Source: Phycisphaerae bacterium
Lineage (GTDB): Bacteria; Planctomycetota; Phycisphaerae; UBA1845
DNA length: 64,000 nucleotides
NCBI GenBank assembly: GCA_963666835.2
Contig: CAXXGO010000006.1
Span: forward strand, 1,792,001-1,856,000
Reading direction: 5' to 3'
The position numbers and the translations under genes were made by a program. The notes beneath the pieces are model-generated. The model was not told where the DNA came from, ran no database searches, and saw only the letters and a list, made by a program, of their open reading frames with translations. Below are positions 6,562 to 28,800 of this stretch, one piece after another. How positions within the stretch are numbered: the first letter of the stretch is position 1; every line of letters begins with the position of its first letter.

Positions 6562-6570
6562 TGCACTCTC

Positions 6571-8860: not shown

Positions 8861-9320
8861 ACCATCGTGGGCACACTACGAACATACGTAGTCGCCGGCC
8901 AATTCACACCACTTCCCGACGCCGCCGTTGCATACGGCTAACGTGTTGCGGAACATCAACGCCACTGACCGGTTCTGGGACACCCGGCTCGCAATGGCCA
9001 TGACGCAGCCGTCACGTTCATATGATTGGGAGCCTGACCGTTGGTTATATCCGACACGCTGGTGGGCCGCTGCCCGGGCCGGAATAGATCCGCGAGTAGG
9101 GAAAGTCGTATTCACGTCTTCGGAGGCCGATCTTCGAACCCAGAATGTGCGATACAACGGTGCGGAGATCTAGTCGGGCAATCTGCCCACAGACGAAGAC
9201 CCCTGTCAGCAACAGGTCTTTGAATCGTATAATCAAGCGAAGAACCAAACCGTTGTCGTAGCGTGCCGGATTGGTTATATTTGACCTGGAAGACCACAGC
9301 TCGTGCGGAGGATGGAACGT

Positions 9321-10646
9321 ATGCGCAAAATCGATGCCCGTTTTGACATCATAACCAGCATGTTCCTCGGTGGGCCCGAACCTAATAACGTCCACAAACC
9401 GCACGAGCAAGTACCGAATGGCGTCCGCGGTCGAGTTGCCATCCGGCCCCCGTCGGTCAAGGGGGCGTTGCGGTTTTGGTGGCGAGCACTCCGTTGGAAG
9501 ACGTGGATTAAGGCCGCTGGCAACGACGAAGCCGAGGCGCTCACGCGTTTGGCGGAGGAAGAAGGCCGGGTCCTCGGCGCCGCGTACGATTCCTCCTCCA
9601 ACGCGGGCCAGGCAGCCGCTCAGATCATGGTTACGTCCAAGTGTAAGCCAATCAATGGGGGGGAACTGGGCAAGCGGATCAGTAGCGGACATGGTTACTT
9701 GTTGGGGCAAGGTCTCGCCAGACCTCCGAAGCAAGGTGTTACTGTCTGCACACGCGGAGCGATCGACGGTGCCTTCACGTTGCGTATTCTCCTTCACCGG
9801 AGTCTTGATGATTCCCAGGTTACTACCCTTCGGAATGCCGTACTCCTGCTTGGGCTGCTGGGTGGTCTCGGCGCCAGAGCGCGAAGAGGGTTCGGCTCGC
9901 TCGCGATTCAATCGTTGAGAGATGCTGACGGAGCAGCCGTCCCACTTCCTGAGAATCCGGCGGAGTATGCAGAGACGCTGAGGGGCTTGCTTCATGAGTT
10001 GCCCTCGGATGAGCCACCTTTTAGCGCATTCTCGCGTTACACTCGCGTGGACATCTCCGCAACGCATAAGAACGCTTGGTTCCTTCTCAACCATATCGGG
10101 GAGGCACAGATTGAATTTCGTAGCAACGGAAGGCGGACCGGGAAAGAAAGGCAGAATGCACTCAGGCAACGGGTAGCCCAGATGCCATTCAAAGGGGACC
10201 ACGACTCGATGCTCTCCCTCCTTCCTAGTCTCTCTCCTGGGCAGGGGCCGCCCCTGACGCATCCCCGGCGGGTCATCTTCGGGCTTCCGCACAATTATTT
10301 CTTCGGCAGCGTGAATCGGAAAGAAAGCTGGCGGGGACGGAAGGAGGCGAGGCGCCGCGCCACCGTACAGATCAGCCCTGTCAATGACAAGGACTTTGGA
10401 CGTCGGGCGTCCCCGTTGTTGATTCACATACACAGGTTTCCCACCGGTGACGCCGTCGCGGTGCAGACGGTGATGAGGGCTAGGTTCTTGCCCCCCGACG
10501 AGGGAATCAGAATCGCGGCCGGTGTCAACTCTAAGGATTTCCCTGTCGCGTGCGTACCGGCATGGGATGTCCTCGATGACTACTTGGACGGGTTCGGCTC
10601 ACGGACCACCGTTCTGCCTCTTGTGGAAGGTGGCGAAAATGGATGA
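9321..10646 (+). CDS. cmr1: Type III-B CRISPR RAMP protein Cmr1
   Basis: TSMFLGG, IRPPSVKGALRFWWRA, G-loop GGLGARARRGFGS, FGLPH, RRASPLLIHI; GGAGG RBS at 9307-9311. Confidence 0.92.
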   Translation: MRKIDARFDIITSMFLGGPEPNNVHKPHEQVPNGVRGRVAIRPPSVKGALRFWWRALRWKTWIKAAGNDEAEALTRLAEEEGRVLGAAYDSSSNAGQAAAQIMVTSKCKPINGGELGKRISSGHGYLLGQGLARPPKQGVTVCTRGAIDGAFTLRILLHRSLDDSQVTTLRNAVLLLGLLGGLGARARRGFGSLAIQSLRDADGAAVPLPENPAEYAETLRGLLHELPSDEPPFSAFSRYTRVDISATHKNAWFLLNHIGEAQIEFRSNGRRTGKERQNALRQRVAQMPFKGDHDSMLSLLPSLSPGQGPPLTHPRRVIFGLPHNYFFGSVNRKESWRGRKEARRRATVQISPVNDKDFGRRASPLLIHIHRFPTGDAVAVQTVMRARFLPPDEGIRIAAGVNSKDFPVACVPAWDVLDDYLDGFGSRTTVLPLVEGGENG

Positions 10647-12681
10647 GATGTACTTCCATTTCACAATCGGCCCGGTCCAGGGTTTTGTCGCCCAAGCGCG
10701 GCGGACGCGGGATTTCTGGGCTGGGTCCTTCTTGCTTTCCTGGCTCGCCGGTGTCGCGATGAACGCCGTGTTGAAGCAGTGCTCGGGGAACAAGACCGGG
10801 ATTGTCTTTCCGAGGCCGAGCAAGGAGTTGCTTGATTGGTGGAAAGGCCGGAAGAGCGATGGGCCTCGCCAGGGGACTATTCCCAATCGCTTTCTGGCGC
10901 GCGTCGACGGCGAGGCGTTCAATCCTCAGACCGTTGTCGACAGCGTTATCTTAGCTTGGCGCGGTTTGGCCGCGGCGGTCTGGGATGCGGATCTTGAGGG
11001 AAAGCCAGGGATCTGCTCAGAGCAACGCGTCATCTGGAACCGCCAGATCAACGGTTTCTGGGAGATCTCTTGGGCATTGACCAAAACGAAAAGCCAAGGC
11101 GACGCGCGCGCACTCGACCAGCGCAAGAATTGGAGGACACGTTACCCCACACCGGAGCCGGGAGTTAGCTGCATGGTGATTGATGGCTTTCAGGAGTTGT
11201 CCGGGGAAAGCAAGCCAGGTGCGAATGTGACAAACTTCTGGGAGCAGCAACGCAAGAGGTTACCAACCGACCTTCGCGAAGGAGAGTGCCTCTGTGCTAT
11301 TGCGTTCGTGAAACGGCGGTTCGTTCGGTGTTTTCATGGCCTCAAGATCGACATGCCCGGCAACTGGACTTTGACCGGATGGCGGGGCCTAACTACAAAC
11401 GTACCCTCGAACACGTTCATGGCCGCAACCCCTTGGCTCGCACGTGTTGTGCGTGCCGCGGCGGACGAACCGGCGCGCAGCGCAGAGGGGAAACAGCTTT
11501 CAGACTTCTACGGTACCGCCAAGGCCCTGGCCGACCACGGTGAACGGGCCACGAAGATCAAGCGGATCGAAGAGGCCGTTGGTGAAGCCCAACGAGCGTA
11601 TCCGGCCCACAAAGAGGAAATCGCGAGATTAGTTCAACTCGACGGATCGGTCTTCTTCGACAACTTGCTTGACAATGGTCGCCTGTTCCAGAAACACACG
11701 GAAGAACACGCTGCGATTGTCAGAGAGAAGCTCAAGAAACTGAAGGAGATCGCAGGAGGTGGTCCGGTGCCATTCTATGCTGTCCTGGCCATGGACGGCG
11801 ATAGTCTCGGCGCGAAGATGAGCAAGGAGGAGAACCAAGAGGGAATCGCCTCCGCGCTGAACGAGTTCACCCAAGCCGTAGCCGAGAAGCTCGTCACCGA
11901 GCATCACGGTTTTCTCATCTATGCTGGCGGCGACGATGTGTTGGCAGTGTTCGCCGCTGAGGACGCGCTTGCGGGCGCAGTTGCGATCCGGGAGGAGTAC
12001 CGGAGGTGCTTCAAGAAGCAGGCCGAGCCGGAGGTCCGCAAGTCCACTATCTCGGCGGCCGTGCATTATGTTGACATCCAGCGCCCGCTGACGCGTGTGC
12101 TCGGTGAGACTCACGATCTCCTCGAGAAGGTCGCGAAAGACCAGACCGGGCGAGATTCGCTGGCCGTTCGCCTGACCAGGCCCGGCGGCGTCTCTTTCGA
12201 GTGGTCCATGCCGTGGGAGATCGCACTGACACCAGAGAAGGACGACCAAGGTCGACCGGTTGAGAGATGCCTTGAGGTGGAGAGGTTGGCTGGAACGCTC
12301 AGACCAGATATGCACCCGGCATCCGACGGCGGTCGCGACAACGAAGAGGGCGGGCGTTTCAGCCATGGGTTCTTCTACAAGATCAGAAATCACATCGCAC
12401 TGCTCAATGGCGGAAACGGCGCAGTGCTGGGTGAGAAGGAAGCTAAGGCGATCCTCGCCACGGACTATCTGAACTCTGGCGTGCATGCACCTGGACGAAG
12501 CCTGACATTCGATGATGCTGTGGCGGCCATTGGACCCCTTTTTCAACAATGCCGCCGCATCACCCGGGATCCGGTCTCGGGCGAGATAGCCACGTTAGCC
12601 AAGGACGAGCTTGGCGAGGTGACCGACGATGCCGCCATGCTGGTTCGCTTTCTCGCGACTACTGTCTATGGAGGGGAGTAA
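10639..12681 (+). CDS. cas10: Cas10/Cmr2 without an HD nuclease domain, intact Palm2 cyclase motif
   Basis: Starts directly at FTIGPVQGFVAQARRTRDFWAGSFLLSWL (no HD domain); MDGDSLG and IYAGGDDV motifs. Confidence 0.95.
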   Translation: MDEMYFHFTIGPVQGFVAQARRTRDFWAGSFLLSWLAGVAMNAVLKQCSGNKTGIVFPRPSKELLDWWKGRKSDGPRQGTIPNRFLARVDGEAFNPQTVVDSVILAWRGLAAAVWDADLEGKPGICSEQRVIWNRQINGFWEISWALTKTKSQGDARALDQRKNWRTRYPTPEPGVSCMVIDGFQELSGESKPGANVTNFWEQQRKRLPTDLREGECLCAIAFVKRRFVRCFHGLKIDMPGNWTLTGWRGLTTNVPSNTFMAATPWLARVVRAAADEPARSAEGKQLSDFYGTAKALADHGERATKIKRIEEAVGEAQRAYPAHKEEIARLVQLDGSVFFDNLLDNGRLFQKHTEEHAAIVREKLKKLKEIAGGGPVPFYAVLAMDGDSLGAKMSKEENQEGIASALNEFTQAVAEKLVTEHHGFLIYAGGDDVLAVFAAEDALAGAVAIREEYRRCFKKQAEPEVRKSTISAAVHYVDIQRPLTRVLGETHDLLEKVAKDQTGRDSLAVRLTRPGGVSFEWSMPWEIALTPEKDDQGRPVERCLEVERLAGTLRPDMHPASDGGRDNEEGGRFSHGFFYKIRNHIALLNGGNGAVLGEKEAKAILATDYLNSGVHAPGRSLTFDDAVAAIGPLFQQCRRITRDPVSGEIATLAKDELGEVTDDAAMLVRFLATTVYGGE

Positions 12682-13895
12682 TGACCGATAGCCCCACTCG
12701 CACGTGGCGTTTTGAGCAGGTGGACAGCTGGTTCTTCCGCGAAGCCCGCCCCTACGGGACCATTGGCGGAGTCGAACTCTCGAGTGTGTTCCCGCCACCG
12801 GCACGTACGGTGGCCGGCGCGATTCGGACGATGATCGGGGAGCACCGCGGAGTTGACTGGAAGGAGTTCGCCAAAGAGGGGGATCTTAAGTGGTCGCCTT
12901 TACGGGAACAGATTGGGACGGGACGCGGCGACCAGGAGTTTGGTGCGTTTCGCATGAAGGGTCCGTACTTGGAGTATAAGCGTAGGCGGCTCTTCCCGGC
13001 ACCTTCGCTGCTCCTCGCCGGGCGCAAGGCGAAACAACGCACGCTGACACGACTGCGCCCGGGCGAGGCGTGCGTGTGCGACCTCTCGCAGAATGACAAT
13101 GCCGGAGACCAGTTGCCAGTGCGGCTGCCAACTATGACAGATCCCTTGCCGGGGGCCGAACCGCTGTCTGACTGGCTAACACCGGAAGGCTTCGCGGATG
13201 TGCTGTCAGGCAACCTGCCAGCCTGGGCGGACTGCGTACCGCCCGCCGAGTTGTTCGCGGAGGAACCGCGACTCGGGATCGCTCGCGAGTGCAAACAGCG
13301 CACCACTGTCAAGGGGCTCCTCTACCAAACACGCCACGTACGGCTTAACCCTGACGTCAACGTCCGCGCGGACATTTCGGGTATTGCCGACAGCTTCACG
13401 CCTCCGGCAGGCGCCGTCCGTTTGGGCGGGGATGGCCGCTTCTCCCACGTTACAATAGAAGGTGGTAACAGCGAGCATATTGCTCCGCCGGTTCCTTCCG
13501 ACCCCAACGGCAGACAGTTACTGCTCATCCTTACAACCTGTGCCGACTTCGGCGAAACCGGCTGGCTGCCGAGCGGCTTCGCGCCGCACGCCATTGAGCG
13601 CGGCACCGTGAAAATACGTTGCTGGAAGGGTACGATCGCGAATGTCCCGCTTATTATTGAATGCGCATGCATCGGCAAGACTGTCCGTGAGGGAGGCTGG
13701 GATGCTGCACTTAGGCAACCTCGGGAGGTTCGGTCCTTGGTCCCGGCCGGAAGCGTCTACTTCTGCCGCCTCGACGACGGTGCACCGCAAATCGCAGACG
13801 CAATGAAGGCACTCCACGGTGCTACGGTGGAGGGGCAGGGGACCGAGATCGGCTACGGCGAACTAGCCGTCGGCCTGTGGAACGAAGCTTGTTGA
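12681..13895 (+). CDS. cmr3: Type III-B CRISPR protein Cmr3
   Basis: DSWFFREARP, FPPPARTVAGAIR, RLGGDGR, GGWD, VPAGSVYF, GYG; coupled to the cas10 stop. Confidence 0.92.
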   Translation: MTDSPTRTWRFEQVDSWFFREARPYGTIGGVELSSVFPPPARTVAGAIRTMIGEHRGVDWKEFAKEGDLKWSPLREQIGTGRGDQEFGAFRMKGPYLEYKRRRLFPAPSLLLAGRKAKQRTLTRLRPGEACVCDLSQNDNAGDQLPVRLPTMTDPLPGAEPLSDWLTPEGFADVLSGNLPAWADCVPPAELFAEEPRLGIARECKQRTTVKGLLYQTRHVRLNPDVNVRADISGIADSFTPPAGAVRLGGDGRFSHVTIEGGNSEHIAPPVPSDPNGRQLLLILTTCADFGETGWLPSGFAPHAIERGTVKIRCWKGTIANVPLIIECACIGKTVREGGWDAALRQPREVRSLVPAGSVYFCRLDDGAPQIADAMKALHGATVEGQGTEIGYGELAVGLWNEAC

Positions 13896-13909
13896 TCAGG
13901 AGGTCAGAT

Positions 13910-14863
13910 ATGAGACAGGCCAATGCAATGCTCGGCCTACTTACGCACACTTCTATGCACGCGGGAACCGGGCAGGCAACCGGTGTGATCGACCTGCCCG
14001 TCCAGCGAGAGGGGCATACGGGATGGCCGTGCGTGTTCGGTTCAGCCGTGAAGGGCGCTTTGCGAACCCGGGCAGTCGACCGCCACGGAAGCGCCGGCTG
14101 GATCTACGACGTCTTCGGACCACCTCCTCCCAGGGACAACACCGCCGCATTCCCTCAACCGGGAGACTACGGTGGGGCGCTTGCGGTCGGCGACGCAAAG
14201 CTGCTGCTGCTGCCGATTCGTTCCCTGAGCACCCACTTCAAGTGGGTCACCTGTCCGGCACTCCTCGGCAGGTGGCAACGCGATATAGAACGAAATCGTC
14301 TGAGTGGCAAGTTCGGCGGCAACTGGGATGTGCCCGATGTCGCTGACGACAGAGCATACGTGGCTACCTCTCCGCCTGACCGTAAGCTGTTTCTTGAGGA
14401 GTTTCGTTTCGACGCAGAGGTTCCAGAAAGCAAGCTCGCAGGCGTAATTGCGTCCCTGACAACACTCATAGACGGAAAGCCGGATCAGGGGCAGCCGGGT
14501 CCAACCCGCAAGGCGCTGGAGAAGCAGCTCGCGATCATCAGCGATGACCGTTTCAGCACCCTCTGCCGTTTCGCAGCGCCGGTCGATCCGCACGTCCAAC
14601 TTTACGACAAGAAGACGGTAGCGCAGGGGCCCTGGTACGAGGAGACGCTCCCGCCCGATACGCTGCTCTACGTCGAGTTATTGGGGCATCCGTCACGCAA
14701 GGACCCCGCATCGATGAGTGCGTCGGACATCATGGACCATGCCACAACCAGTCTCTTTGACGACCATGACTCGTACCTGCAACTTGGCGGCAACGAGACG
14801 GTAGGCATGGGCTGGTGTGGCGTCGCGGTGCACAAGGCGAGCGCCCAGCCAACCAGTAAGTAA
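13910..14863 (+). CDS. cmr4: Type III-B CRISPR RAMP backbone Cmr4
   Basis: HAGTG...IDLPVQRE (catalytic Asp retained), GSAVKGALR, WYEETLPPDT, QLGGNETVGMG. Confidence 0.95.
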   Translation: MRQANAMLGLLTHTSMHAGTGQATGVIDLPVQREGHTGWPCVFGSAVKGALRTRAVDRHGSAGWIYDVFGPPPPRDNTAAFPQPGDYGGALAVGDAKLLLLPIRSLSTHFKWVTCPALLGRWQRDIERNRLSGKFGGNWDVPDVADDRAYVATSPPDRKLFLEEFRFDAEVPESKLAGVIASLTTLIDGKPDQGQPGPTRKALEKQLAIISDDRFSTLCRFAAPVDPHVQLYDKKTVAQGPWYEETLPPDTLLYVELLGHPSRKDPASMSASDIMDHATTSLFDDHDSYLQLGGNETVGMGWCGVAVHKASAQPTSK

Positions 14864-14887
14864 CGCACAACCAACGGGAGATCGGTC

Positions 14888-15331
14888 ATGCAAACCATTC
14901 AGCAGGAGCGGGCGGGGCACGCACTCAAGGGAGTCAATGATGGCCTTGAGGGGCTGAGTGAAAAGGAGAAACGTGAATACCGAGCCGCCGCCCGTGGGCT
15001 CGGTCCCATGGTGCTGTCGAACGGGCTCGGCCAGGCCGCCGCCTTCTATTGCAGCCGAGCGGACAAGACGCACGTCAAGCTCTACGCTCTCCTCTCCGAA
15101 TGGCTGACGGAATCGCAGATGCCGTACCGCGAGAAGCCGAACCTGCTCGAAGGCATCACCGAGGGGAATATGGACCAATACCTGACCGCTCAAGCCGAGG
15201 CGCTTTTGTACCTGCACTGGGTCAGCATGTTTGCAACCGCGCTGATCCGGACGGAATCGAATCCCGGCCGTGCTGCGGGAGACTCAGACGAATCCCCCGC
15301 GCCGGACGCAGAGGAAGGCAAGGTCGAATAA
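14888..15331 (+). CDS. cmr5: Type III-B small subunit Cmr5
   Basis: MQTIQQERA...YRAAARGLGPMVLSNGLGQAAAF; sits between cmr4 and cmr6. Confidence 0.9.
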   Translation: MQTIQQERAGHALKGVNDGLEGLSEKEKREYRAAARGLGPMVLSNGLGQAAAFYCSRADKTHVKLYALLSEWLTESQMPYREKPNLLEGITEGNMDQYLTAQAEALLYLHWVSMFATALIRTESNPGRAAGDSDESPAPDAEEGKVE

Positions 15332-16164
15332 TGGCAACGCTCCCCCTCTACAAGAACCACAACAGCCCTCCTCGGCTGGATCGCAACCAGAAGCCTCACT
15401 GCGGCCTCTGGTGGGAGAGATTCTGCACTCTGTACCGGTGCGTGGGCGGGAAGTGGATCGCAGCCGAAGCGCAGAATGACAGAGAAAGCTCACCGAAGCT
15501 TGATTGGATCAACGAATTCGCAAGGGACGCTTGTGGCGACCCTGCGATGCTCGCTCTCGCCGAAAGCCGCATGAGGAACCTGTGCACTACCCTACGCGGC
15601 AGCACGCGGACCTTTGCCACCGACTGGCACTTTGTCACTGGCCTCGGCATCGACCACGCCGTCGAAAACGGCTTCGGCTGGCACCCCACGTTGGGTGTGC
15701 CCTATCTGCCGGGTTGCGCCGTGAAGGGCATGCTCCGTGCGTGGTTAACCCACTGGGACGAGGAGGATAAGAGCAAGCTCGACCGGTGGCTCGGCACCTC
15801 CAAAGAGGCAGGCAAGTTCGTTTTCTTCGATGCCCTCCCCCCGAAGCCGGTGAAGCTCACCGCCGATGTGATGACGCCGCACATGGGCAATTGGTACAGC
15901 GAAGGCGCGTCAATCAGCGCTGTCAGCCATGAAGAGTGCAAGAAGATCCCGGGGGATTGGCACAACCCGGTCCCGGTTCCGTTTCTGGCTGTCCAAGCCG
16001 GCCAGCAGTTCGTGTTCGCCGTCGCACCGAAAAGAAGCGGCGACAGCGCAGAGAGTGACCGGAAGGAAGTGGCCGAAGTACTTGATCAGATTGAGCAGGC
16101 TTTGACGTGGATCGGCGCCGGCGCCAAGACCGCAGTCGGATATGGTCGTTTCGAGCGAGTTTAG
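15331..16164 (+). CDS. cmr6: Type III-B CRISPR RAMP protein Cmr6
   Basis: FVTGLG...ENGFGWHPTLGVPYLPGCAVKG, DVMTPH, PVPVPFL, GAGAKTAVGYGRF. Confidence 0.93.
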   Translation: MATLPLYKNHNSPPRLDRNQKPHCGLWWERFCTLYRCVGGKWIAAEAQNDRESSPKLDWINEFARDACGDPAMLALAESRMRNLCTTLRGSTRTFATDWHFVTGLGIDHAVENGFGWHPTLGVPYLPGCAVKGMLRAWLTHWDEEDKSKLDRWLGTSKEAGKFVFFDALPPKPVKLTADVMTPHMGNWYSEGASISAVSHEECKKIPGDWHNPVPVPFLAVQAGQQFVFAVAPKRSGDSAESDRKEVAEVLDQIEQALTWIGAGAKTAVGYGRFERV

Positions 16165-16208
16165 ACGGCGGACGAACACCTGAGTACTACTTTCGCATCC
16201 GAGATGAC

Positions 16209-18971
16209 ATGCCTGTTTCAGCTCCCAGCTTCTATCGACTCCAGGTCACCTTACGCATGACCGCCCGAGCCTCGCTCCCGGCCCATCATGCCGGTGTACT
16301 CTACTCGCTACTGGCCGCGGCCAACGGACGGGCCGTCGATATGGAGCCCGCTCTGCCGGACGGGCTGATGCTCGACGCCCCGGAACAGTGCCGCATGAGC
16401 CTCTCGCCGGGAGAGCGTTATAACTTCGGCTTCACCCTGCTATCCGACAATGACGATCGCGCGCAAGCGTGCATTGACCAGATCCGTGACGGGCTTGCAC
16501 GACACGGCAAAGAGCGTGCCTACGAGCCCCACGTCTTCGGCGGGAACTTCGCCGTTGCCGAACTTCGCGACCTCGTGGCAAACGCACCCATCGAAGCCGG
16601 GCAGGTCCCCGAAGCCATCCCGCTTGACCACCTGGAGGATGAGTGCCGTCGCCTCGAGTCGGAACCCAGGCTCAGTCTGAGTTTCACCTCGCCGTTACGC
16701 ATGCCGCGCCCGACCCGCTTCCGCGAAGAGGGACACGGGTTCTTCGACGGCCACCAGTTCTATACCGGGCTGTTTCTCCTTCGCCTGTGCCGCCGCCTTC
16801 GTAGGCTCGGGTTCCTCGACATCCCGGAATTCGCTCCAGACGACACGAATCACCTGGCTCACCTTGCGGCGAATCGGCTTGTCTGGCTCGACTTTTCCTA
16901 TGGACCACACGGGCAGCGGAAGTCCCTCGGCGGTGCACTCGGTTTGCTCACGGTTGAGCGCGTAGACCCCCGCGCGATTCGCCCCCTGGTACTCGGACAA
17001 TACGTCCGATGCGGCCAGAACACGCGATTCGGACTCGGTGCCTATCGCATCGCGCAGCTCGGCCCGTCGTCGTTTCCCGCCCGACGTGCCGTTTCGCTCT
17101 TGCGGCTCGCCCTGCGGCAGGATCACCTCGACACCGCCGCGCACCGCTATGAGCTCCCCAGCGGTTTACTCCAGACCCTCGCCGGACGCGTGGAGACCGG
17201 CTCCTATCAGCCCGAACCATCCCACAGTGTCACAATCCCCAAGCCGGACGGCGGCGAGCGCACGTTACGGATCGCGTCACCTGCTGACCGAGCACTGCAG
17301 CGGGTGTTGTTTGAACGCCTCGCGCCCGCGGTCGACGCCTTCTTCGAGGATTCTTCACTTGCGTACCGGCGAGGTCTCGGCAGACGCCGCGCCGCTCATC
17401 GCATCCGGCACGCCTTCCGGGAGGGCTACGGACACGCAATAAAGGCCGATTTCTTCCACTTCTTCGATTCGATTGACCATGCCCTCCTTCGAGCTCGCCT
17501 CAGCGCCTATATTGCAGATCACGAGACTGTCGACCTTATCATGCGCTGGGTAGGCGCCGACGCTCCCGAGCTTGGCCGCGGAATCCCCACCGGCTCGCCA
17601 CTCTCGCCTTTGCTTGCCAACCTGTTCCTTGACGAGTTCGATGAAGAGATCGAGCGGCACGGCGGACGCCTTGTTCGCTATGCAGATGATTTCCTGGTGC
17701 TCTACCGCACCCGCGCCGAAGCCGACCGAGTTTACGAAACGGCCGTCCAAGCCGCCCATGCCTTGGCCTTGGTACTGAACCGGAACAAAACCACGCGTCT
17801 CGATCTTACTGAAGGCTTCGAGTTCCTGGGATTCAGTTTCGAACGCACGGATCGTTGGGTCGCCAAGCCCGGGGAAGGGCCCAGGCACCTGCAGGATCTG
17901 GGTTGGCACGAGTCGCACAACAAGCCCAAGCCGGCCCCCAACCGGCTCGCCTTTGCCGGGGAGGACGCCACCATTGAGCCGTCGAACCGTGCATGGGCCG
18001 TGTTCGGTCCGGGAGCCGTAAAGCTGCGAATCAGCAGTGGCCGGCTGTTGTGCGCATACCGGGATGGTTCAACGTCCGCCGCTCACCTCGACCACGTGCG
18101 GAGTGTACTCGTTCTCGGCCGCCCGACTATGTCCTCCGGAGTACTCGAAGCCCTCCGTCACCACAGTGTACCAATGCTCGTCGCCGACGATTTCGGTCGC
18201 TCCCAAAGCACATTCACCCATAACGAGATTGTCGAGCATCCGCAGGCCGTCGCGGCGCAGGTGAACATGCTCCACGACAAACCGCACCGGCTCGCACTCG
18301 CCAAGCGACTCGTCTGGGCTAAGATCTCCAACTACGCCACTTTGGCCGCGTCCCTGCGCTCCAAGACGGATGGAACGTCCGAGACCCTCCGAGCGTATGA
18401 AACGCGCTGCCGCGAGGCCGCCGATATACAGGAACTCCTCGGCTTCGAGGGCGCTGCGGCCGCCGCCTGGTATCGCGTCTTCCCGCGCCTGTTGCCGGAT
18501 TGGTGCCGGTTTTCGCGCCGCGTGGCCCCCGACGCCTCCGACCCCGCCAATATCCTGCTCAACATTGCCCAGTCGGCATTGCACAACCAGTGTATTGCTG
18601 CGGCGCGCCTGGCCGGGCTTTCGCCGGTTGTCGGGGTCCTCCACGATCTGCGGCAAGGTCACGCGGCCCTGGCCTCCGACCTCCAGGAGCCGTTCCGCCA
18701 CCTTATGGACCGGGTGGTCATAGAGGCTATGCCGCTGCTGAAGCCCAAGGACTTCCGGAGAGTCGAAGGCAGCGAGTATCAGCTTACGATCGCTCCCAAG
18801 GCCATCCGCCTGTTCCTCGCGCACCTTTACGAGACGTTCCATCTGAATTGCCGATCGCGCGGCACGCTCGATACGTGCACCTATCTTGCTCATCTGTCGA
18901 TGAACGCCCGCTCCTTTCGCCGGCACCTGCTTGATCGCAAGGTCTTTCCCCACTACTTTCGTCACCCATGA
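16209..18971 (+). CDS. cas1: Cas6-reverse transcriptase-Cas1 triple fusion
   Basis: N-terminal Cas6 with G-loop GQNTRFGLGAY; central RT (IPKPDG, KADFFHFFDSIDH, GIPTGSPLSPLLANLFLD, YADDF, FLGF); C-terminal Cas1 (LLGFEGAAA, NILLN, GVLH, LASDLQEPFR). Start codon estimated. Confidence 0.93.
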   Translation: MPVSAPSFYRLQVTLRMTARASLPAHHAGVLYSLLAAANGRAVDMEPALPDGLMLDAPEQCRMSLSPGERYNFGFTLLSDNDDRAQACIDQIRDGLARHGKERAYEPHVFGGNFAVAELRDLVANAPIEAGQVPEAIPLDHLEDECRRLESEPRLSLSFTSPLRMPRPTRFREEGHGFFDGHQFYTGLFLLRLCRRLRRLGFLDIPEFAPDDTNHLAHLAANRLVWLDFSYGPHGQRKSLGGALGLLTVERVDPRAIRPLVLGQYVRCGQNTRFGLGAYRIAQLGPSSFPARRAVSLLRLALRQDHLDTAAHRYELPSGLLQTLAGRVETGSYQPEPSHSVTIPKPDGGERTLRIASPADRALQRVLFERLAPAVDAFFEDSSLAYRRGLGRRRAAHRIRHAFREGYGHAIKADFFHFFDSIDHALLRARLSAYIADHETVDLIMRWVGADAPELGRGIPTGSPLSPLLANLFLDEFDEEIERHGGRLVRYADDFLVLYRTRAEADRVYETAVQAAHALALVLNRNKTTRLDLTEGFEFLGFSFERTDRWVAKPGEGPRHLQDLGWHESHNKPKPAPNRLAFAGEDATIEPSNRAWAVFGPGAVKLRISSGRLLCAYRDGSTSAAHLDHVRSVLVLGRPTMSSGVLEALRHHSVPMLVADDFGRSQSTFTHNEIVEHPQAVAAQVNMLHDKPHRLALAKRLVWAKISNYATLAASLRSKTDGTSETLRAYETRCREAADIQELLGFEGAAAAAWYRVFPRLLPDWCRFSRRVAPDASDPANILLNIAQSALHNQCIAAARLAGLSPVVGVLHDLRQGHAALASDLQEPFRHLMDRVVIEAMPLLKPKDFRRVEGSEYQLTIAPKAIRLFLAHLYETFHLNCRSRGTLDTCTYLAHLSMNARSFRRHLLDRKVFPHYFRHP

Positions 18972-19240
18972 GCCAGTATGTAGCCGCCTATGACGTCTCC
19001 GATGACCAGCGCCGGCGTGCGGTTGCGGCCGTTTTGTCATCCTACGGCCAACGTATTCAGCAGTCGGTCTTCGAGATCTGGCTTGAGCCGCCGGAACTTC
19101 CCGAGTTACGCCGCAGCATCGGACCGTTGTTGGCCGTGACGGATGCGTTCGACCTCGTCCCGATCGACAACCGGGGCACACGCCCGCGCTATCGATGGCA
19201 GCGCCCCGTCGAAACGCAGAAGGCCGTTCTGCTCTGTTGA
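18968..19240 (+). CDS. cas2: CRISPR-associated endoribonuclease Cas2
   Basis: YVAAYDVSDDQRR...YGQRIQQSVFE; ATGA overlap with the Cas1 fusion. Confidence 0.95.
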   Translation: MSQYVAAYDVSDDQRRRAVAAVLSSYGQRIQQSVFEIWLEPPELPELRRSIGPLLAVTDAFDLVPIDNRGTRPRYRWQRPVETQKAVLLC

Positions 19241-19561
19241 CACTCGGAAGCCGGCACACATCTGGACAATATGCTCGATCTGTGATAAGATAATAACAGA
19301 GTTGGGCGGCTGCGCCTTGCTGGGCGCGGTCCAACACGTGCATGCCCCCGGCCGGCCTGGGCCGGAACTTTCGCGCAGGGAGGGGCATCCGGCCGAAGCG
19401 TTGACGCCGGCCCCGAAATGCGTGATTGCGAACCCGCCGTCGCGGTGGGAGGTGGAGGTTGTTCTTTCTCATCGGAATAGAACCTATGATCGCGGCTTCG
19501 CTAACTCCTTTTGACCACACCGATTACGTCGCTTCGGCCCATCGGCGCAAGGAACGAGGGG
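19241..19561 (+). promoter_or_regulatory. CRISPR leader region
   Basis: Interval without a convincing gene between cas2 and the first repeat; the degenerate repeat is at the opposite end of the array. Confidence 0.65.
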
Positions 19562-21441
19562 GTGAAATGAGCCGTCCTTAAGGACCGCAATCAAAACCAT
19601 TCGCAATTCCTTTCACCAGAAGCCAACCTTGTGAAATGAGCCGTCCTTAAGGACCGCAATCAAAACGCTACCTCCTTAAGTCAGTTCTCAGTTCTCAGTC
19701 CTCGTGAAATGAGCCGTCCTTAAGGACCGCAATCAAAACGTCCAGCTACAATCGTCGGCTGTTGCATCATCCGTGAAATGAGCCGTCCTTAAGGACCGCA
19801 ATCAAAACTTGAGGGTGTTGAGAGTGGTCATGATCGGTCTCCTGTGAAATGAGCCGTCCTTAAGGACCGCAATCAAAACCCAGTAAAAAACATTATTAAC
19901 ATGACTAACACCCGGTGAAATGAGCCGTCCTTAAGGACCGCAATCAAAACTCGAATTTTTTTAATCTCCAGTTTCATTATATCTCTCCGTGAAATGAGCC
20001 GTCCTTAAGGACCGCAATCAAAACGCTACCTCCTTAAGTCAGTTCTCAGTTCTCAGTCCTCGTGAAATGAGCCGTCCTTAAGGACCGCAATCAAAACGTC
20101 CAGCTACAATCGTCGGCTGTTGCATCATCCGTGAAATGAGCCGTCCTTAAGGACCGCAATCAAAACTTGAGGGTGTTGAGAGTGGTCATGATCGGTCTCC
20201 TGTGAAATGAGCCGTCCTTAAGGACCGCAATCAAAACCCAGTAAAAAACATTATTAACATGACTAACACCCGGTGAAATGAGCCGTCCTTAAGGACCGCA
20301 ATCAAAACTCAACCGTTCTTTTCGCGTATCCATGACTTTCGTGAAATGAGCCGTCCTTAAGGACCGCAATCAAAACCGTTCGTCGCCGTCTTGGTGATCT
20401 TGCCGTCGCGTGAAATGAGCCGTCCTTAAGGACCGCAATCAAAACCGTTGAAATAAATCTGTGCTAGTTCCACTGACAGTGAAATGAGCCGTCCTTAAGG
20501 ACCGCAATCAAAACTGATACGAACTCCTTAGAAAGGGAACCTTGGCCAAGGTGAAATGAGCCGTCCTTAAGGACCGCAATCAAAACTATAAGCGTTTCAT
20601 CGCCTATACTCCTACCGGGTGAAATGAGCCGTCCTTAAGGACCGCAATCAAAACAGACAGCTTCCGCTTCCGCTTCCGATCGCGCGACTCAGTGAAATGA
20701 GCCGTCCTTAAGGACCGCAATCAAAACGACGACCATTTCTGGTCTCCTTTCTTTCTGGTCTCTTGTGAAATGAGCCGTCCTTAAGGACCGCAATCAAAAC
20801 TGTTTCGCTGGGGGCAGGCGAGCGTAGGGACGGAACAGTGAAATGAGCCGTCCTTAAGGACCGCAATCAAAACCCTTAACGCTACCATAACCAGATCTCC
20901 ATATCGGTGAAATGAGCCGTCCTTAAGGACCGCAATCAAAACTCAGCCATCTCAGCCTCCCTAATTTTTTTTGATATAACCTTGGTGAAATGAGCCGTCC
21001 TTAAGGACCGCAATCAAAACTCCCGAACACCCCCAGAAACCCAACCACCGCCGCGTGAAATGAGCCGTCCTTAAGGACCGCAATCAAAACTTGCCTGTAA
21101 CTAGACTAAACATGATTGTTCCTTGGTGAAATGAGCCGTCCTTAAGGACCGCAATCAAAACGAAAATTTCGTCGCGTGTCATGATATTGTTCGGTGAAAT
21201 GAGCCGTCCTTAAGGACCGCAATCAAAACAGCCGCTCCTGAACTCATTCTGATACCTCACGAAGGTGAAATGAGCCGTCCTTAAGGACCGCAATCAAAAC
21301 CACCGCCACCAGCAGCACCGCAATCATGTTCTTCTGTGAAATGAGCCGTCCTTAAGGACCGCAATCAAAACGTACTATCACCCTACAAGGCGTGCTACCT
21401 CCCGGGTGAAATGAGCCGTCCTTAAGGACCGCAATCAGAAT
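19562..21441 (+). CRISPR. CRISPR array: 27 repeats of 36 nt (GTGAAATGAGCCGTCCTTAAGGACCGCAATCAAAAC), 26 spacers of 32-42 nt, 22 unique
   Basis: Counted by hand. The repeat contains the palindrome GTCCTTAAGGAC and ends in ATCAAAAC (type III-like 8-nt tag). The last repeat is degenerate (...ATCAGAAT), which supports + orientation. Confidence 0.98.
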
Positions 21442-21562: not shown

Positions 21563-22861
21563 TTAGTGTTCAGCGGGTGGAGGTACGGTTCGGGCGTTGT
21601 AGATGATCGGCTTGCAGTCCCCCTCGGTCTGCACGTACTGGAATTGGTAGTGATCATTGAGCGTGACTACTACACCCACCGCACTCGTGACCTTCTGCCC
21701 ACCGGTCACGTCGATGACGGTGTGCTCCGGAGGGATACTCTTATGGCCGCGGTCCTTTCTGCGGAGGTCAGGTAGGATCTCGCCGGTGAGCACGTCGGAC
21801 AATTCATCGAAGCTCTCGAAATCCAGGCCCTCTTTTAGTATAAACTCGACGCTGGGAAGGTAGTGCTCGAGAAGCCTCTGGCAATCTCCGCCCCGCCCGT
21901 CCGACCCATACGTGGTGCGTCCGTTCTTGTCCGTCTTCTTGCGCGAGGTCAACAGGTAGACGTACCGGAGCGGCTGCCCCTTGTACGGAGCGATCGCACG
22001 AAGGAGCTGCTGCCAGTTCCATTTGATGTACTTCTCGTCTTCGCCCCAGCGGCAGAGCGGGTCCTTGCTGCCAGGTGTTGATCGAAGAACGTCCTGTGCC
22101 GGATCGTCACCGAGCAGTACGGTCGGTTCTGACGCGCGCTGCGTGCTAACCCAGATCTCTTTCTTGTTCTCGCCTTGGTTGAAGTCGACGGTGAAGGCGT
22201 TGCTCGACACGTGCAGGATCAGCGCCTCTACTTTCCCGCCTTGTTTCACGTATTCGTCCGCGTCGACGGGCTCTGACAGTGTTCGATGCACCGTTAGATT
22301 TCGGTGCAGCCGGTGGAGGATAATTACCCCGCCGACCACTACCGTCAGGGCGACGCCGTACGCCCAGTTCGGCAGCAAGTGGTGTGCGTGTAACAGGTGG
22401 TGCATGACGATGGCAAAGGCATGTCCGGACAAAAGGGCCAGGGCGGCCATGAGCACCTCAAGAACGTGCGCTCTTCGTTTGCTTGCCTCCAACTGTTGTT
22501 GCGACCCGCTCCCTTTCTCCGACGGCTGGGGCGTGAACCGCAGTGAGTGCAGCTTATCCGCGGAGTATACGAAGATCCCCAAAGTGCCGACCGCAAACAG
22601 GATGCCAAGGGCTAGAGCCCAGCCGGGTCGGCCGGAAACCGTGTTCAGCACCTCCACCATGAGGTACGCCATAATATGACCGGCCGCGAGCACAAAGACG
22701 AGTAATACGATGAAACCGATGAGGCTCTTTCGGTTTACGCGACGCCCTTCCTTAGCCGTTGCCACGGTACTGCGCTTCTCCCCCTCCAACGGGGTGCCAT
22801 CGCTATCGCTCTCGGTTGCGCCAACTGGTCGAACCGGCGACTCTCCGTCATCATTGGACAT
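21563..22861 (-). CDS. Membrane-anchored CARF effector (4 TM + CARF), Cam1-like architecture
   Basis: Four N-terminal hydrophobic helices; C-terminal Rossmann-like region with YVYLLTS, DFESFDEL and the CARF motif VIDVTGGQKVTS; no nuclease domain; adjacent to the array and csx3; GGAG RBS before ATG 22861. Confidence 0.8.
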   Translation of the reverse strand: MSNDDGESPVRPVGATESDSDGTPLEGEKRSTVATAKEGRRVNRKSLIGFIVLLVFVLAAGHIMAYLMVEVLNTVSGRPGWALALGILFAVGTLGIFVYSADKLHSLRFTPQPSEKGSGSQQQLEASKRRAHVLEVLMAALALLSGHAFAIVMHHLLHAHHLLPNWAYGVALTVVVGGVIILHRLHRNLTVHRTLSEPVDADEYVKQGGKVEALILHVSSNAFTVDFNQGENKKEIWVSTQRASEPTVLLGDDPAQDVLRSTPGSKDPLCRWGEDEKYIKWNWQQLLRAIAPYKGQPLRYVYLLTSRKKTDKNGRTTYGSDGRGGDCQRLLEHYLPSVEFILKEGLDFESFDELSDVLTGEILPDLRRKDRGHKSIPPEHTVIDVTGGQKVTSAVGVVVTLNDHYQFQYVQTEGDCKPIIYNARTVPPPAEH

Positions 22862-22917
22862 GCGTATTCTCCCTGAAGGGACTTCAGACGAGACGAGCTT
22901 AACCAAATGCAATCAGA

Positions 22918-23256
22918 TCAGTGAGCATCTGTCAAGTTTGCGATCCGGACTAATTCACCAACTTGCGGCGCTTCGGACTTGTGCCTTGCGACGACGATCG
23001 CGCCATTCTCACGCGGGTCATACAGCGCGAGCCAGGCAAACGCGTGCGCCAAGTGTACTAAATAAGCATAGAGCCATACAGGGCCACGGCCGGAGAGTAC
23101 AAGCCCGAGGTGCCGATATGCATCGAGCTCGACCGGCAGCTTGATCTCGGCCAACCGCCTGTAGTCGAGCAACCCATCAGGCGTGGTCGCGTGGAACTCT
23201 GCATAGCTGAGAGCGTTTCCCGTAGTGATCTTCCAACCGAGCATCTCCGACGTCAT
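22918..23256 (-). CDS. csx3: Csx3/Crn3 ring nuclease
   Basis: 112 aa; GLVLSGRGPVWLYAYLVH..H..AWLALYDPR..GAIVVARH is the Csx3 signature. Confidence 0.9.
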   Translation of the reverse strand: MTSEMLGWKITTGNALSYAEFHATTPDGLLDYRRLAEIKLPVELDAYRHLGLVLSGRGPVWLYAYLVHLAHAFAWLALYDPRENGAIVVARHKSEAPQVGELVRIANLTDAH

Positions 23257-23323
23257 TTCTGCCCGCCTCCCTTATTGTGCGTATTCGCTCACCCTTAGGC
23301 CACAACAACAGTGTATTTGTATT

Positions 23324-24187
23324 CTACAAAAAAGGCGACCACCGGGGAACCGCATAGAAGACCCCGGGGGCTGTATTCGTAATGGACGAGAAGCCGCCCA
23401 AGGCGAACACTCGCTCAAAGAACCCGGCCGTGATTGTCACCCCGTCCAGCACGGTCGTGCTGCCTACGCCCATGCTGACGACTACATGATAGCTGTTGTC
23501 TCCGGTATTCAGTCTCGTGATACAGGAGCCACCGCTGCACAACCCTCCGTGCGAATCACAATCTGGCGAGTCCTCCGTACATGGAACCGGCTCATCGTTG
23601 CGCATCAGGTCGCCGTTGAGGATGGTCTCGTTGGCAACGAAATCACGGTCGGCCAAGTTGAACGTGTCTGGGTTTTCATCGCCAAAGAAGCCACCGTAGA
23701 TGGCCACGCCGTTGACTAGCCCAAATGTCTCCGATCGCTCACCGGGTGTAACGATCTCGCCTTCATCCTGATCGGGATAATAGGTTCCACCGGTGACCCA
23801 GATCACATCCCCCTCTTCTGCAACGGCAAGGGCATCCTGGAGATACTTGTATGCCTTGAGCCACGTCGTTCCGTCACCATCGATGGGTGCGTCATCGTCG
23901 ACGTAAATCACGGCCTCTGTGAGCGGAACCCAGAATCCACCGCACATGGTAAAACCCCCATCGCTAGCCGTTCCAGATGCCGGCTGGCTTATGGTCCCCG
24001 TCAATGTAAACTCGCCGCCGAAGGTGGACGCTTTCTCACCACCCCCGGCAATCACCTCCTTCTTCATCTCGAAGTCCTGCGCATAGTCCAAGCGAGGCGC
24101 GCTGAGGACTATCAGAGCACCGATCGCAATGGTGCCGATCCAAGAACGACGGTTACGGTTACCACGCACATCTAGCAATATGTTCAT
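23324..24187 (-). pseudogene. Secreted beta-helix (pectin-lyase-like) protein, apparently 3'-truncated
   Basis: Signal peptide, GGG...TLTGTISQP...GGFW module, then VIYVDDDA..DGTTW..AYKYLQDAL, NSYHVV, LDGVTITAG; family-like sequence stops near 23425, where the beta-helix should continue. Confidence 0.6.
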
Positions 24188-25831: not shown

Positions 25832-28800
25832 TCAGGCCCGCCGTGGTCGACGGCGCCTGGGCCCATGAAGCCGTAGGCCGACCCAGCCGAATGTCCCGAT
25901 TACGACGCATACCCACGATCCCTCGCCGCAAGCGCCACATGGGGCGCCGACGTTGGTCTCACAACAGTCTTGCTCCTCGTTGCACCTGTCGCCCACCCCA
26001 CACGGTGAGTTTCCCGTTTGGCACGTCATGTCGAGGCACAACTCTGCCCCATTGCAGAACTGGCCGTCGTCGCAATCCGAATCCTCCGTGCAGTCGACCG
26101 TTTGGAAGTTCGCGGTAATGACTTTGTTGGAGTCCATGGAGACGATCAGTGGATTGTCCTGTTCTCTACCTTGTTCGACGGAACCCGACCATTCGCTGAA
26201 TACGCAGGGACGGGGGCAGTCGACCGACGCTGGAGTCGGCACGCAGCGGCCGTCACAGGTATCCGAAGGACAAACGTCATCACATGTCTGCGGTGCCACG
26301 GCGACGAAGATCCGTACTAATGAAGCGTTCTGATGCAGCGTCGCCGGTAGTTCCTGACCGGGGTCCGACGGAGTTGGATTAACGGAGAGCTCTAGATCCC
26401 AAATACGCTGACAGTCGCCGTCGATACACTGCTCATCATCGGGACATTCGATTGCCACATTCGCGCAACCCGAGATCGGATCGCACGAGTCCTCCGTGCA
26501 GGGGTCATCATCGCTGCAATCAAGTGGCGTTCCATCTACGCATGTTCGCTCTTCGCAGGTTTCCAGCCCGTTGCATGCGTTTCCGTCATCGCATTCTTCA
26601 TCGGACGTACAGGGGCATTCCTCGCACCGATCCAACGCCTCGCAGCAAGGCCCATCACACGGCGGGATACCTGATTCGCAACCGCCATCGACACATTCCT
26701 CCGCACCGTTGCAATAGATGCCGTCGTCGCACACGACGGGGTCGAATATGCAGGCACCGTCGACGCACGTATCCGTCGTGCAGGCATCTTCATCGTCACA
26801 TGTGATCGGCTCATAAACACACGTGCCATCTTCGCAGGAGTCCGTCGTACACTCATCGTCATCATCACAATTCACCCCATCACACGGGTCGACGCCGCAA
26901 CCCGGTATCGGCACGTGAACACAACCGATCGCCGGGTTGCACGAGTCGGTTGTGCAGTCGTTGCCGTCGTTGCAGTTGAGTGCCGTACCGGGTTGACAGC
27001 CGATTGCTGGATCACACGTCTCCTGGCCGTTGCAGGCGTTGCCGTCGCTGCAAGAGGCATCGTCGACGCACGCAGCACCAAACGCGAGATAGGTCGGGCC
27101 CTCAAGACCGCAACCGGTAGCAAAGACGCAGGGATTGGCCGGCGACCCATCGGTCCCGTCGAACTCCAGGATAGCATCGGACCCCAGGCTGGACACAAAG
27201 ACGTTTCCGTTCGGTCCGATTGTGATGCCTTGCGGTCCGCTCAGTCCACAGGTCCCGGGTGCCACGAAATCACCAACGCACCTCTGTGCCGGGTCCTCGA
27301 TCGACAAATCGAACTCCACCACCGAATCTGCATCGTGGTTGGCTACAAGCACGTGCCCGTTCGGCAGCACCGCGATCCCCACCGGCGTATCCAGACCGCA
27401 ACCGCTGGCCACGACCTCACACGTTTCCCCCGTCGTCGTGTCGAACGAGATGATACTGCCCGTTTCCTCGCTCACTACTAGCAGCTCCCCGCCGGCCGTG
27501 AACACGACGCCGTTGGGACCTTCCAGCCCGCAGCCGGCGGCCGCGAACCCCGGGTCCTGTTCGCCCGTCTCCCCGTCAAACCGAAGTACTCGATGAGTAC
27601 GCCAATCCGTGGCGTACAGCTTGCCATCCGGGCCGAACGCAATCCCAGAGGACGTGATGCCTTCGACGAAATCTCGCACGAACTCGCCCGTGCAGTCCCC
27701 TGCCACCTTACGATATTCCTTGATGCTCGACGTCTCGACACTTGCCACAACGAGGTTCCCGGTGTGTGGAGACACCGCAAGGCCATTCGCATAGTCGATT
27801 CCGCCGATACCTCTCGGCACCAACGGCGAGAGGTTCTCCCCCGTCCCCGCGTCGAACAAGGCAACGCTGTCGCCGCCGAAGCTGCCGACATAGACTAATG
27901 CCCCGCGCCCACTGGCCCACGGATTCGGCAGGCACTCCGCACAGTCCTCTACACAGCATTCACCCGCCTCGCATGGGTCACCGGTTGATTCACATTCGCC
28001 GTCGACGCACACTTCATCTCCGTCACAATAGGCCCCGTTGTCCTCGCAGTGTTCATCAACCAGACAGTCCACGCACCTGTCGTTCTCCTCGTCACACTGC
28101 GCTACGCACGGATCCTCCACGTCGCGACATGCGCCGGCCTCGCATTCCTCCTCCCCGTTACAGTATAGGCCATCGGCACACACATTCGAGTCGTCCGGCG
28201 TAAAGACGCACCCCGTACTCGGCTCACACGAATCGTCCGTACATGGGTTTGCATCATCGCACTCTGCATCGGTCATACACACGACGCATGCGTCGTTACC
28301 CTCGTCACATACGAGGCCATCATCGATACACGGATCTCCACTGGACTGGCACGCCTGATCCACGCAGGAGTCAACTCCTGTGCAGAACAGGTGGTCCTCG
28401 CAATCCGCGTCCGAGAGGCACTCAACACACGCCTCCCTGCCCTCGTCACAGACAAGACCTGCCGCGAGGCACGGGTCGCCGGTCGATACGCACAAGCAGC
28501 CGTCATCGCAAACCTCTTCACCGTCGCAAAAGACCCCGTTGTCGTTGCAGTCGCCCGATGTAAAGCAGGCGCAGCACCGTCGGTTGGGTTCGTCGCATAG
28601 TTGGTCCAGATGTGTGCAGGGGTCTCCGTCTGACGCACAGAATCCGTCCATACATACTTCGCTCCCGTTACAGTACACGCCATCATCCGCGCACTCGCCG
28701 TCATGGAAGCACTCCACGCAGTCCTCTAGGTCCTCATCGCAACGAAGTCCGGTGCCGATGCAGGGGTCTCCGCTCGATTCGCACCGGCCGGCATCACATG

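Follow-up and report, generated by a model that had tools for sequence, protein, structure and literature searches.

The CRISPR-Cas locus

The 64,000-nucleotide stretch analyzed here (hereafter referred to as the window; positions 1,792,001 to 1,856,000 of contig CAXXGO010000006.1, forward strand, Phycisphaerae bacterium assembly GCA_963666835.2) contains a type III-B CRISPR-Cas locus in which a set of Cmr effector genes is followed by a gene fusing Cas6, reverse transcriptase (RT) and Cas1 domains, by cas2 and by a CRISPR array. About 40% of the guides specified by this array are antisense to real Shine-Dalgarno (SD) and start-codon regions of foreign, AT-richer genes. A previous sequence-only reading of the window had described the array as type III-B and as lying beside a Cas6-RT-Cas1 fusion, and profile matches for cmr1-6, RT and Cas1 bear out this description.

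All six Cmr genes are present, in order, on the + strand (9303-16164), as identified by Pfam and NCBIfam profile matches. The first, cmr1 (9303..10646, +; RAMPs PF03787, E 8e-15; TIGR01894 Cmr1, E 5e-10), is given with the coordinates of its open reading frame (ORF), its start not being fixed. The following gene, cas10/cmr2 (10522..12681, +; PF22335, PF12469, TIGR02577, E 5e-40), likely starts at the internal methionine of MDEMYFHF and encodes a GGDD cyclase motif within the translated segment IYAGGDDVLAVF; an HD domain was not matched in the profile search. The product of cmr3 (12549..13895, +; PF09700, E 2e-58) reaches 199 bits with Pfam Cas_Cmr3 and an NCBIfam score of 97.1, slightly under the cut-off of 100.4. 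The backbone RAMP gene cmr4 (13877..14863, +; TIGR02580, E 5e-51) encodes a protein that aligns with Pyrococcus furiosus Cmr4 (chains 4w8w and 4rdp) so that GVIDLPVQRE faces GVVDQPIQRE, and thus keeps the aspartate of GVVDQP that we take to be the catalytic residue for RNA cutting. The operon continues with cmr5 (14888..15331, +; PF09701, E 1e-26) and cmr6 (15049..16164, +; TIGR01898, E 8e-35 over residues 239-369), the ORF of which overlaps cmr5 and probably has its true start later than the listed one.

The adaptation genes begin with the 954-codon cas6-RT-cas1 fusion (16107..18971, +), which matches PF01867 Cas1 (E 5e-50) and PF00078 RVT_1 (E 4e-28) and contains the RT motif YADD (LVRYADDFLVLY). 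The match of its Cas6 part to PF10040 is weak (E 3e-4; 21.9 bits, under the 25-bit cut-off), and PF10040 is recorded for most homologues of the protein. Homology search returned 58 such homologues, the named ones coming from metagenome-assembled genomes (MAGs) of Planctomycetota, and a protein search of 101 genomes of the family for relatives of the fusion yielded group II intron RTs only. The gene is followed by cas2 (18968..19240, +; PF09827, E 3e-12) and by a putative leader between cas2 and the first repeat (19241..19561, +), in which consensus matching alone places one sigma-70-like site on the + strand (19263-19291).

Array structure and polarity

The array lies downstream of cas2 (19562..21441, +) and comprises 27 repeats, 26 of them perfect 36-nt copies and the last a degenerate copy at 21406-21441, separated by 26 spacers of 32-42 nt spanning 19598-21405; the coordinates and anatomy reported in the sequence-only reading were correct. 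Only 22 spacers are unique, because S2-S5 are identical to S7-S10. These spacers and their repeats are carried by a perfect 300-bp direct repeat (19631-19930 and 19989-20288, offset 358 bp), and their second copy is an internal duplication of the array, not repeated acquisition. The 36-nt repeat was not found at a second site in the host genome, a 29-nt core of it had zero exact matches in genome contigs, and no Rfam family was found for it.

The CRISPR RNA (crRNA) was taken to correspond to the + strand and the target to its reverse complement (hereafter target-sense). This polarity is based on the degenerate repeat at the far end and on the end of the repeat (...ATCAAAAC); in all 59 related arrays scored below, with repeats of 35-37 nt, the repeat ends in AC on the RT-cas1 strand, and three repeats of 35-37 nt lacking an AC end were left out of the scoring. 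Contigs from three DNA runs collapse the array and are hence uninformative on polarity and expression. In one 120-nt contig (run X3, record 6; at window position 20148), 30 unrelated letters adjoin half a repeat and S9; the contig could stem from a variant array of a related strain or be an assembly chimera.

Start-region motifs in the spacers

The start-region motif was defined as an ATG preceded, at a distance of 4-11 nt, by one of the cores AGGA, GGAG and GAGG. It is present in 9/22 unique spacers in target-sense and in 0/22 in crRNA-sense. Dinucleotide shuffles of the spacers contained on average 1.31 motifs, with 0/5000 shuffles reaching 9, and random 35-mers from the host genome carried the motif in 837 of 40000 cases (2.1%). 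The enrichment is real and far beyond chance, and the count becomes 10/22 if SD sequences of the GGTG type are allowed. The tail of the host 16S rRNA is canonical (...CCTCCTTTCT).

The nine spacers, with coordinates on the + strand and their reverse complements, are S1 (19598..19630; ends ...AGGAattgcgaATG), S4 (19809..19843, with its copy S9 at 20167-20201; aGGAGaccgatcATGacc...), S6 (19951..19988; GGAGagatataATGaaa...), S15 (20587..20618; ...GGAGtataggcgATGaaa...), S17 (20728..20764; ...GGAGaccagaaATGgtcgtc), S19 (20874..20906; ...GGAGatctggttATGgta...), S20 (20943..20984; ...GAGGctgagATGgctga), S22 (21091..21125; caAGGAacaatcATGttt...) and S24 (21230..21264; ...GAGGtatcagaATGagt...). The sequence-only reading had quoted these nine SD-spacer-ATG strings, all of which are present on the reverse complement, and had listed weaker cases (S5; S2, S14 and S26; S3, S11, S23 and S25) that are as described; its remark that the other strand shows no comparable pattern agrees with the crRNA-sense count, and the enrichment persists in the strand-wise comparison with composition-matched shuffles. 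Its total of about 17/22 is an upper bound, of which nine are firm, and its claim that the array holds start regions "almost exclusively" was overstated, since loose rules give at most 15.

Taken separately, the two elements of the motif are weakly enriched (SD core in 12/22 spacers against 10.2 expected, ATG in 14/22 against 10.0). Partial classes scored by mechanical rules do not exceed chance expectation here, with four spacers in the class "early ATG, open frame" (shuffles 2.7) and two in the class "late SD, no ATG" (3.3), and no spacer falls in any class on the crRNA-sense strand.

To assess whether the ATGs are real starts, we examined reading frames in 66 motif-bearing spacers among 232 spacers from this array and from eight related ones (L033, L137, L132, L140, L135, L141, L120 and L122; handles denote loci of the comparative set described below). 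The frame set by the ATG contains 0 stops in 193 downstream codons, against 18/326 in the other two frames (Fisher p 2.6e-4), and the residues following the initial methionine are mostly S, K, A and R. The sequence-only reading of these motifs as translation starts is thereby upheld. One start region (...GGAGACCAGAAATGGTCGT...) is stored both by S17 and by spacer 22 of L033, a Pirellulaceae MAG whose RT-Cas1 is 37% identical to that of this locus, in registers 13 nt apart, which suggests a shared or widespread mobile element. In several further pairs, two spacers overlap a single start but are shifted by 5-13 nt relative to each other.

Start-region spacers in other arrays

Two type I arrays of the same genome lack the motif on either strand: a type I-G array (host contig C1, 504348-506183; 0/25 spacers), with a Cas4/Cas1 fusion, Cas3g, Csb1 and Csb2 nearby, and an I-C-like array located at a contig end and containing some near-duplicate, slightly divergent spacers (C1, 2167015-2168828; 0/24). 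Within the host the enrichment is therefore specific, being absent from all 49 type I spacers. The G+C content (GC) of the spacers is 0.61 and 0.60 in the I-G and I-C-like arrays, respectively, and 0.49 in the RT-linked array, against a window GC of 0.60. The host genome also harbors a dispersed element whose core resembles GGCAGGTCTCGT.CCTCGACCGTGCCCTAC and which forms short tandem arrays with constant-length "spacers" at many sites of contigs C1 and C6 (e.g. C6 281478-282049 and C6 1055852-1056297) and mimics CRISPR arrays in a simple finder; it is probably a repetitive extragenic palindromic (REP)-like repeat family.

For comparison across RT-linked systems, 160 loci encoding relatives of RT-Cas1 were collected, giving 59 usable arrays with 943 unique spacers. 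In five of the 59, the motif is significantly more frequent, after Bonferroni correction, than in shuffles of the same array, with target-sense counts of 17/47 (L033), 17/56 (L137), 7/24 (L132), 5/13 (L135) and 3/4 (L141), corresponding to a motif share of 29-38% in the four significant arrays with at least 13 spacers. The sister array of L132, L140, has 2/13 target-sense motifs and one crRNA-sense motif, and in L033 the crRNA-sense motif is found in 5/47 spacers, against 1.65 expected. Cmr/RT loci of similar GC-richness carry no motif (L124, 0/27; L125 and L130 together, 0/35). In L137 (1647-4424), which has 57 repeats, the RT-cas1 frame is open for 563 residues only, owing to a frameshift or an assembly error.

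On a quick RT-Cas1 tree, motif-rich arrays fall in at least three places, namely this window, L132/L140, and a clade with L135, L033 and L141. The start-region trait is recurrent but patchy across RT-linked arrays, since it needs six changes on this tree, a number matched by 62/500 shuffles; the idea that it marks one RT-Cas1 clade was rejected on the same grounds.

Shape of the bias

The shape of the bias was analyzed in a pool of 179 spacers, drawn from this array and from six others that had been chosen by the motif, a choice that makes the analysis circular. In the pool, only SD cores followed by at least 12 nt of spacer occur more often than expected (119 against 48.7), whereas those followed by fewer than 12 nt are depleted (28 against 39.3), so that a spacer with an SD nearly always includes the start codon. 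For open ATGs, counts exceed expectation at positions 13-24 (80 against 32.2) and, by a smaller margin, at positions 1-12 (42 against 24.8). The register is free, the ATG lying anywhere between positions 12 and 35 of the target-sense spacer; no fixed register or common end was seen among overlapping spacers, and spacer ends show no base bias. The motif-chosen arrays have spacers of 28-42 nt (mode 33) and 51 target-sense motifs against 6 in crRNA-sense.

GC is 0.35 upstream of the SD and 0.45 in the coding part after the ATG. Spacer GC lies 0.07-0.18 under locus GC in GC-rich loci, and the gap between locus and spacer GC correlates with motif share (Spearman 0.46 over 43 loci, 42 related ones and this window, which are not independent samples). 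Read in target-sense, RT-linked spacers are rich in purines in every group. This shape fits capture of AT-rich leader and start segments with an upstream limit, not a phased footprint. On the upstream side, the segment could be bounded by a transcript 5' end close by or by the GC-rich terminus of an upstream gene, and the SD boundary likewise fits either RNA that does not reach far upstream or an AT-rich hotspot.

Origin of the targets

The sequence-only reading had left room for a gene-silencing use of the array and had proposed mapping its spacers to host and viral sequences. In the host genome (6.02 Mb, 92% complete), a blastn-short search with all 26 spacers returned just 18-24-nt partial matches at chance level (E at least 0.38), and silencing of host genes is therefore unsupported as a reading of the array. 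Cultured phages and plasmids gave no credible match to the whole array (29-46-nt alignments, E ~0.5), the L137 and L033 arrays had no match in phages, and the exact cores of four start regions were found zero times each in viral contigs. Across 401 genomes of the phylum the array produced only 21-34-nt matches (E at least 9e-4), most of them on S25, which encodes a hydrophobic N-terminus.

When 1178 spacers were compared with the host genome and every fetched locus, the only matches were to 23S rRNA. These involve spacer 5 of L114/L153 and spacer 1 of L178 (27-32 nt, 90-96% identity; host contig C1, 101119-101385, L189), and the spacers are in the rRNA-sense, non-targeting orientation. They hint at capture from abundant RNA or rDNA, of which such spacers would be expected.

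Discussion

With moderate confidence, we read the array as a natural and strong case of the known AT-rich, start-proximal and antisense-biased capture by RT-Cas1, feeding ordinary Cmr immunity. Under this reading, RT-Cas1-Cas2 would sample foreign transcripts with a strong preference for the AT-rich leader and start, the initial ~50 nt surrounding the start codon, and integration would mostly yield antisense crRNAs, after which selection would purge spacers that are wrongly oriented or of no use. The Cmr complex would then pair with the 5' part of invader mRNAs, Cmr4 would cut the paired mRNAs and the Cas10 cyclase would be switched on. Because the Cmr4 aspartate and the Cas10 GGDD motif are kept, ordinary type III interference would be the default reading of the effector, and blocked initiation through covering of the ribosome-binding site would be its by-product, a side effect and not a separate silencing function.

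The closest precedent is the RT-Cas1-Cas2 module of Fusicatenibacter saccharivorans (Fs), in which, according to a review, capture strongly favors AT-rich sequence, falls mostly near start and stop codons and is preferentially antisense (PMC10828431); the Record-seq results for this module (Schmidt et al., 2018) are cited here after later articles (PMC10828431, PMC6821258, PMC13501316), and a 2026 Record-seq analysis describes untranslated regions (UTRs) as acquisition hotspots governed by AT-richness (PMC13501316). Like Fs, the present locus has an RT-Cas1 module, with spacers of GC 0.49 against 0.60, nine of 22 unique ones over SD and ATG, and strands at 9:0. Unlike the Fs data, which are an effector-free laboratory measurement in E. 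coli on a system described as type III-D, it is a natural planctomycete-type III-B array with a possible history of selection.

Other RT systems behave differently. Two accounts report that the Vibrio vulnificus module, unlike Fs, has no bias toward gene starts or ends (PMC10828431, PMC6821258), and that antisense bias arises in V. vulnificus without an effector module, the other two studied RT systems being said to do likewise (PMC6821258). In this behavior, the type III-D RT-Cas1-Cas2A/B module of V. vulnificus YJ016 (PMC6821258) resembles the motif-free natural arrays, not this one. A known bias of the Fs but not of the V. vulnificus module fits a start bias found in only some RT-linked arrays. 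Like the present locus, Marinomonas mediterranea MMB-1 (Silas et al., 2016) combines Cas6-RT-Cas1 and Cas2 with a neighboring type III-B effector, and its spacers measure ~34-36 bp (PMC10828431, PMC6821258); it has no significant sequence specificity according to a review (PMC10828431), unlike the strong start-region share of this array.

An RT-less parallel comes from the type III-A system of Streptococcus thermophilus, which takes up spacers preferentially close to the start codons of genes being transcribed; the peak, 10-50 nt downstream of these codons, is attributed to DNA exposed by paused transcription (PMC8860593). This parallels the mild excess of RT-less Cmr arrays described below; unlike in S. 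thermophilus, the spacers here extend over the SD and the ATG themselves, and their excess is far greater.

Several observations weigh against the reading we favor. When the five significant arrays and L140 are removed, the remaining 786 spacers of the related set are at background (31 target-sense and 17 crRNA-sense motifs, 23.3 expected), and the nearest relatives with arrays, L110 and L111, have 0/29. The RT-less control started from Cmr4, detected in 31/401 sampled genomes of the phylum, whose neighborhoods were fetched. Seven RT-less Cmr loci with 97 spacers have 10 target-sense against 4 crRNA-sense motifs, and two RT-linked Cmr loci of the phylum with 34 spacers have 0 and 1. In the comparison with RT-less type III arrays proposed in the sequence-only reading, the RT-less excess (10/97) is above the 3% background (binomial P 7e-4), and it is far under the 30-40% of the strongest RT-linked arrays. 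Given this count and the motif-free RT-linked arrays, a mild excess does not require RT linkage, and RT linkage does not guarantee a strong one. The "positive" arrays of the pooled analysis are selected by the motif itself, and the orientation assigned to this array draws on sequence features. No protospacer was found in the host, the phylum genomes, cultured phages and plasmids, or viral contigs, and the position of the targets within genes is consequently read from the spacers themselves. Finally, the 9:0 strand asymmetry could arise wholly from selection, from which a natural array cannot separate an integration bias.

The last point leads to the rival that survives best, a possible account to which we give a distinctly lower probability: uptake would be positionally unbiased, and lineages would keep the spacers that pair with translation-start regions, which are unstructured, ribosome-free when new, present on every transcript and possibly doubly harmful to the invader when targeted, through Cmr and through blocked initiation. 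It stays a serious rival because the RT-less arrays show a mild excess and many RT-linked arrays none. The near-total strand asymmetry of the motif-chosen arrays also speaks for it, as does Thermus thermophilus type III, where positional and strand bias were shown to stem from selection (PMC7515739). Our literature search, however, found no evidence that start-region targets protect better. Selection alone leaves unexplained why RT-linked spacers lie 11 GC points under the host while its type I spacers do not, and the related Cmr/RT systems in GC-rich loci (L124, L125 and L130) show no such retention. The non-targeting motifs of L033, at three times their expectation, are likewise not what selection for RNA targets would retain.

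A stronger version of capture, which we regard as doubtful, holds that some Cas6-RT-Cas1 modules are specialized in capturing the leader/initiation region of foreign mRNAs, making their arrays dedicated "start-site memories". If true, the substrate might be, for instance, the 5'-terminal piece of transcripts or RNA on initiating ribosomes, and the guides would both trigger Cmr and stop translation initiation. Type III defense would then act on the first ~50 nt of invader messages, leaving a natural record of foreign transcription and translation starts.

It is improbable that the spacers are footprints of initiating 30S subunits, or of transcription complexes paused at gene starts. Protection by 30S spans roughly -35 to +19; spacers of 28-42 nt are shorter than this span, their centers are close to the SD-ATG interval, and in the motif-chosen arrays those holding an SD almost always hold an ATG too, all as footprints would have it. 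Footprints would not, however, leave the register free, with same-start spacers differing by 5-13 nt at both ends and spacer ends without base bias, and the excess of early-ATG spacers extends to those reaching more than 19 nt into the gene.

Regulation of the host through crRNAs that silence genes at their start codons is very unlikely: the shape of the targets, SD plus ATG, is all that speaks for it, and against it stand the chance-level host matches and the GC of host genes, 0.61, where the targeted starts are AT-rich. Chance can be dismissed as next to impossible: the purine-richness of target-sense spacers, which might accidentally yield SD-like words and ATGs, and the weak enrichment of each element alone speak for it, and against it stand the joint spaced motif, the open frames after ATG and the same start region stored in the array of another host.

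The pattern bears on RT-linked arrays at large, which are known for spacers without matches. The spacers of natural RT-linked arrays have been called "hyperdiverse, enigmatic" (Silas et al., 2017; PMC5513706), and like them this array has spacers that match almost nothing in databases; the text of that article contains no ribosom-, start codon, UTR, antisense or intergenic, and gene-start content is not discussed there. Our literature search found no description of an SD/start-codon spacer pattern in natural RT-Cas1-linked arrays. That up to ~40% of the spacers in several unrelated arrays consist of a foreign ribosome-binding site and start codon provides a concrete handle on what RT-linked systems record, and carries a bias known from the laboratory, that of the recording tool Record-seq, over to natural arrays of GC-rich bacteria. 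SD plus ATG on the target strand is a simple sequence test for sorting RT-linked arrays into biased and unbiased ones, which invites comparison of the underlying enzymes and yields candidate RNA recorders with a defined 5'-end preference.

Neighboring genes

Downstream of the array, csx3 (22918..23256, -; PF09620, E 4e-22) belongs to a family annotated as CRISPR-associated, to which we presume a ring-nuclease role. It is flanked on the minus strand by ORFs of 449 and 287 codons (21563-24187), neither of which matches Pfam or NCBIfam, and which may serve the type III system as accessory genes. The minus strand directly upstream of the cmr operon carries the type I restriction-modification genes hsdR and hsdS and a gene for a DUF4145 protein (2877-8531), so that the hsd genes together with the cmr operon look like a defense island. 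Farther downstream, a 2758-codon ORF (25832-34108, minus strand) encodes seven CARDB repeats, NHL and Dictyostelium-type repeats, and an alpha/beta-hydrolase-like stretch.

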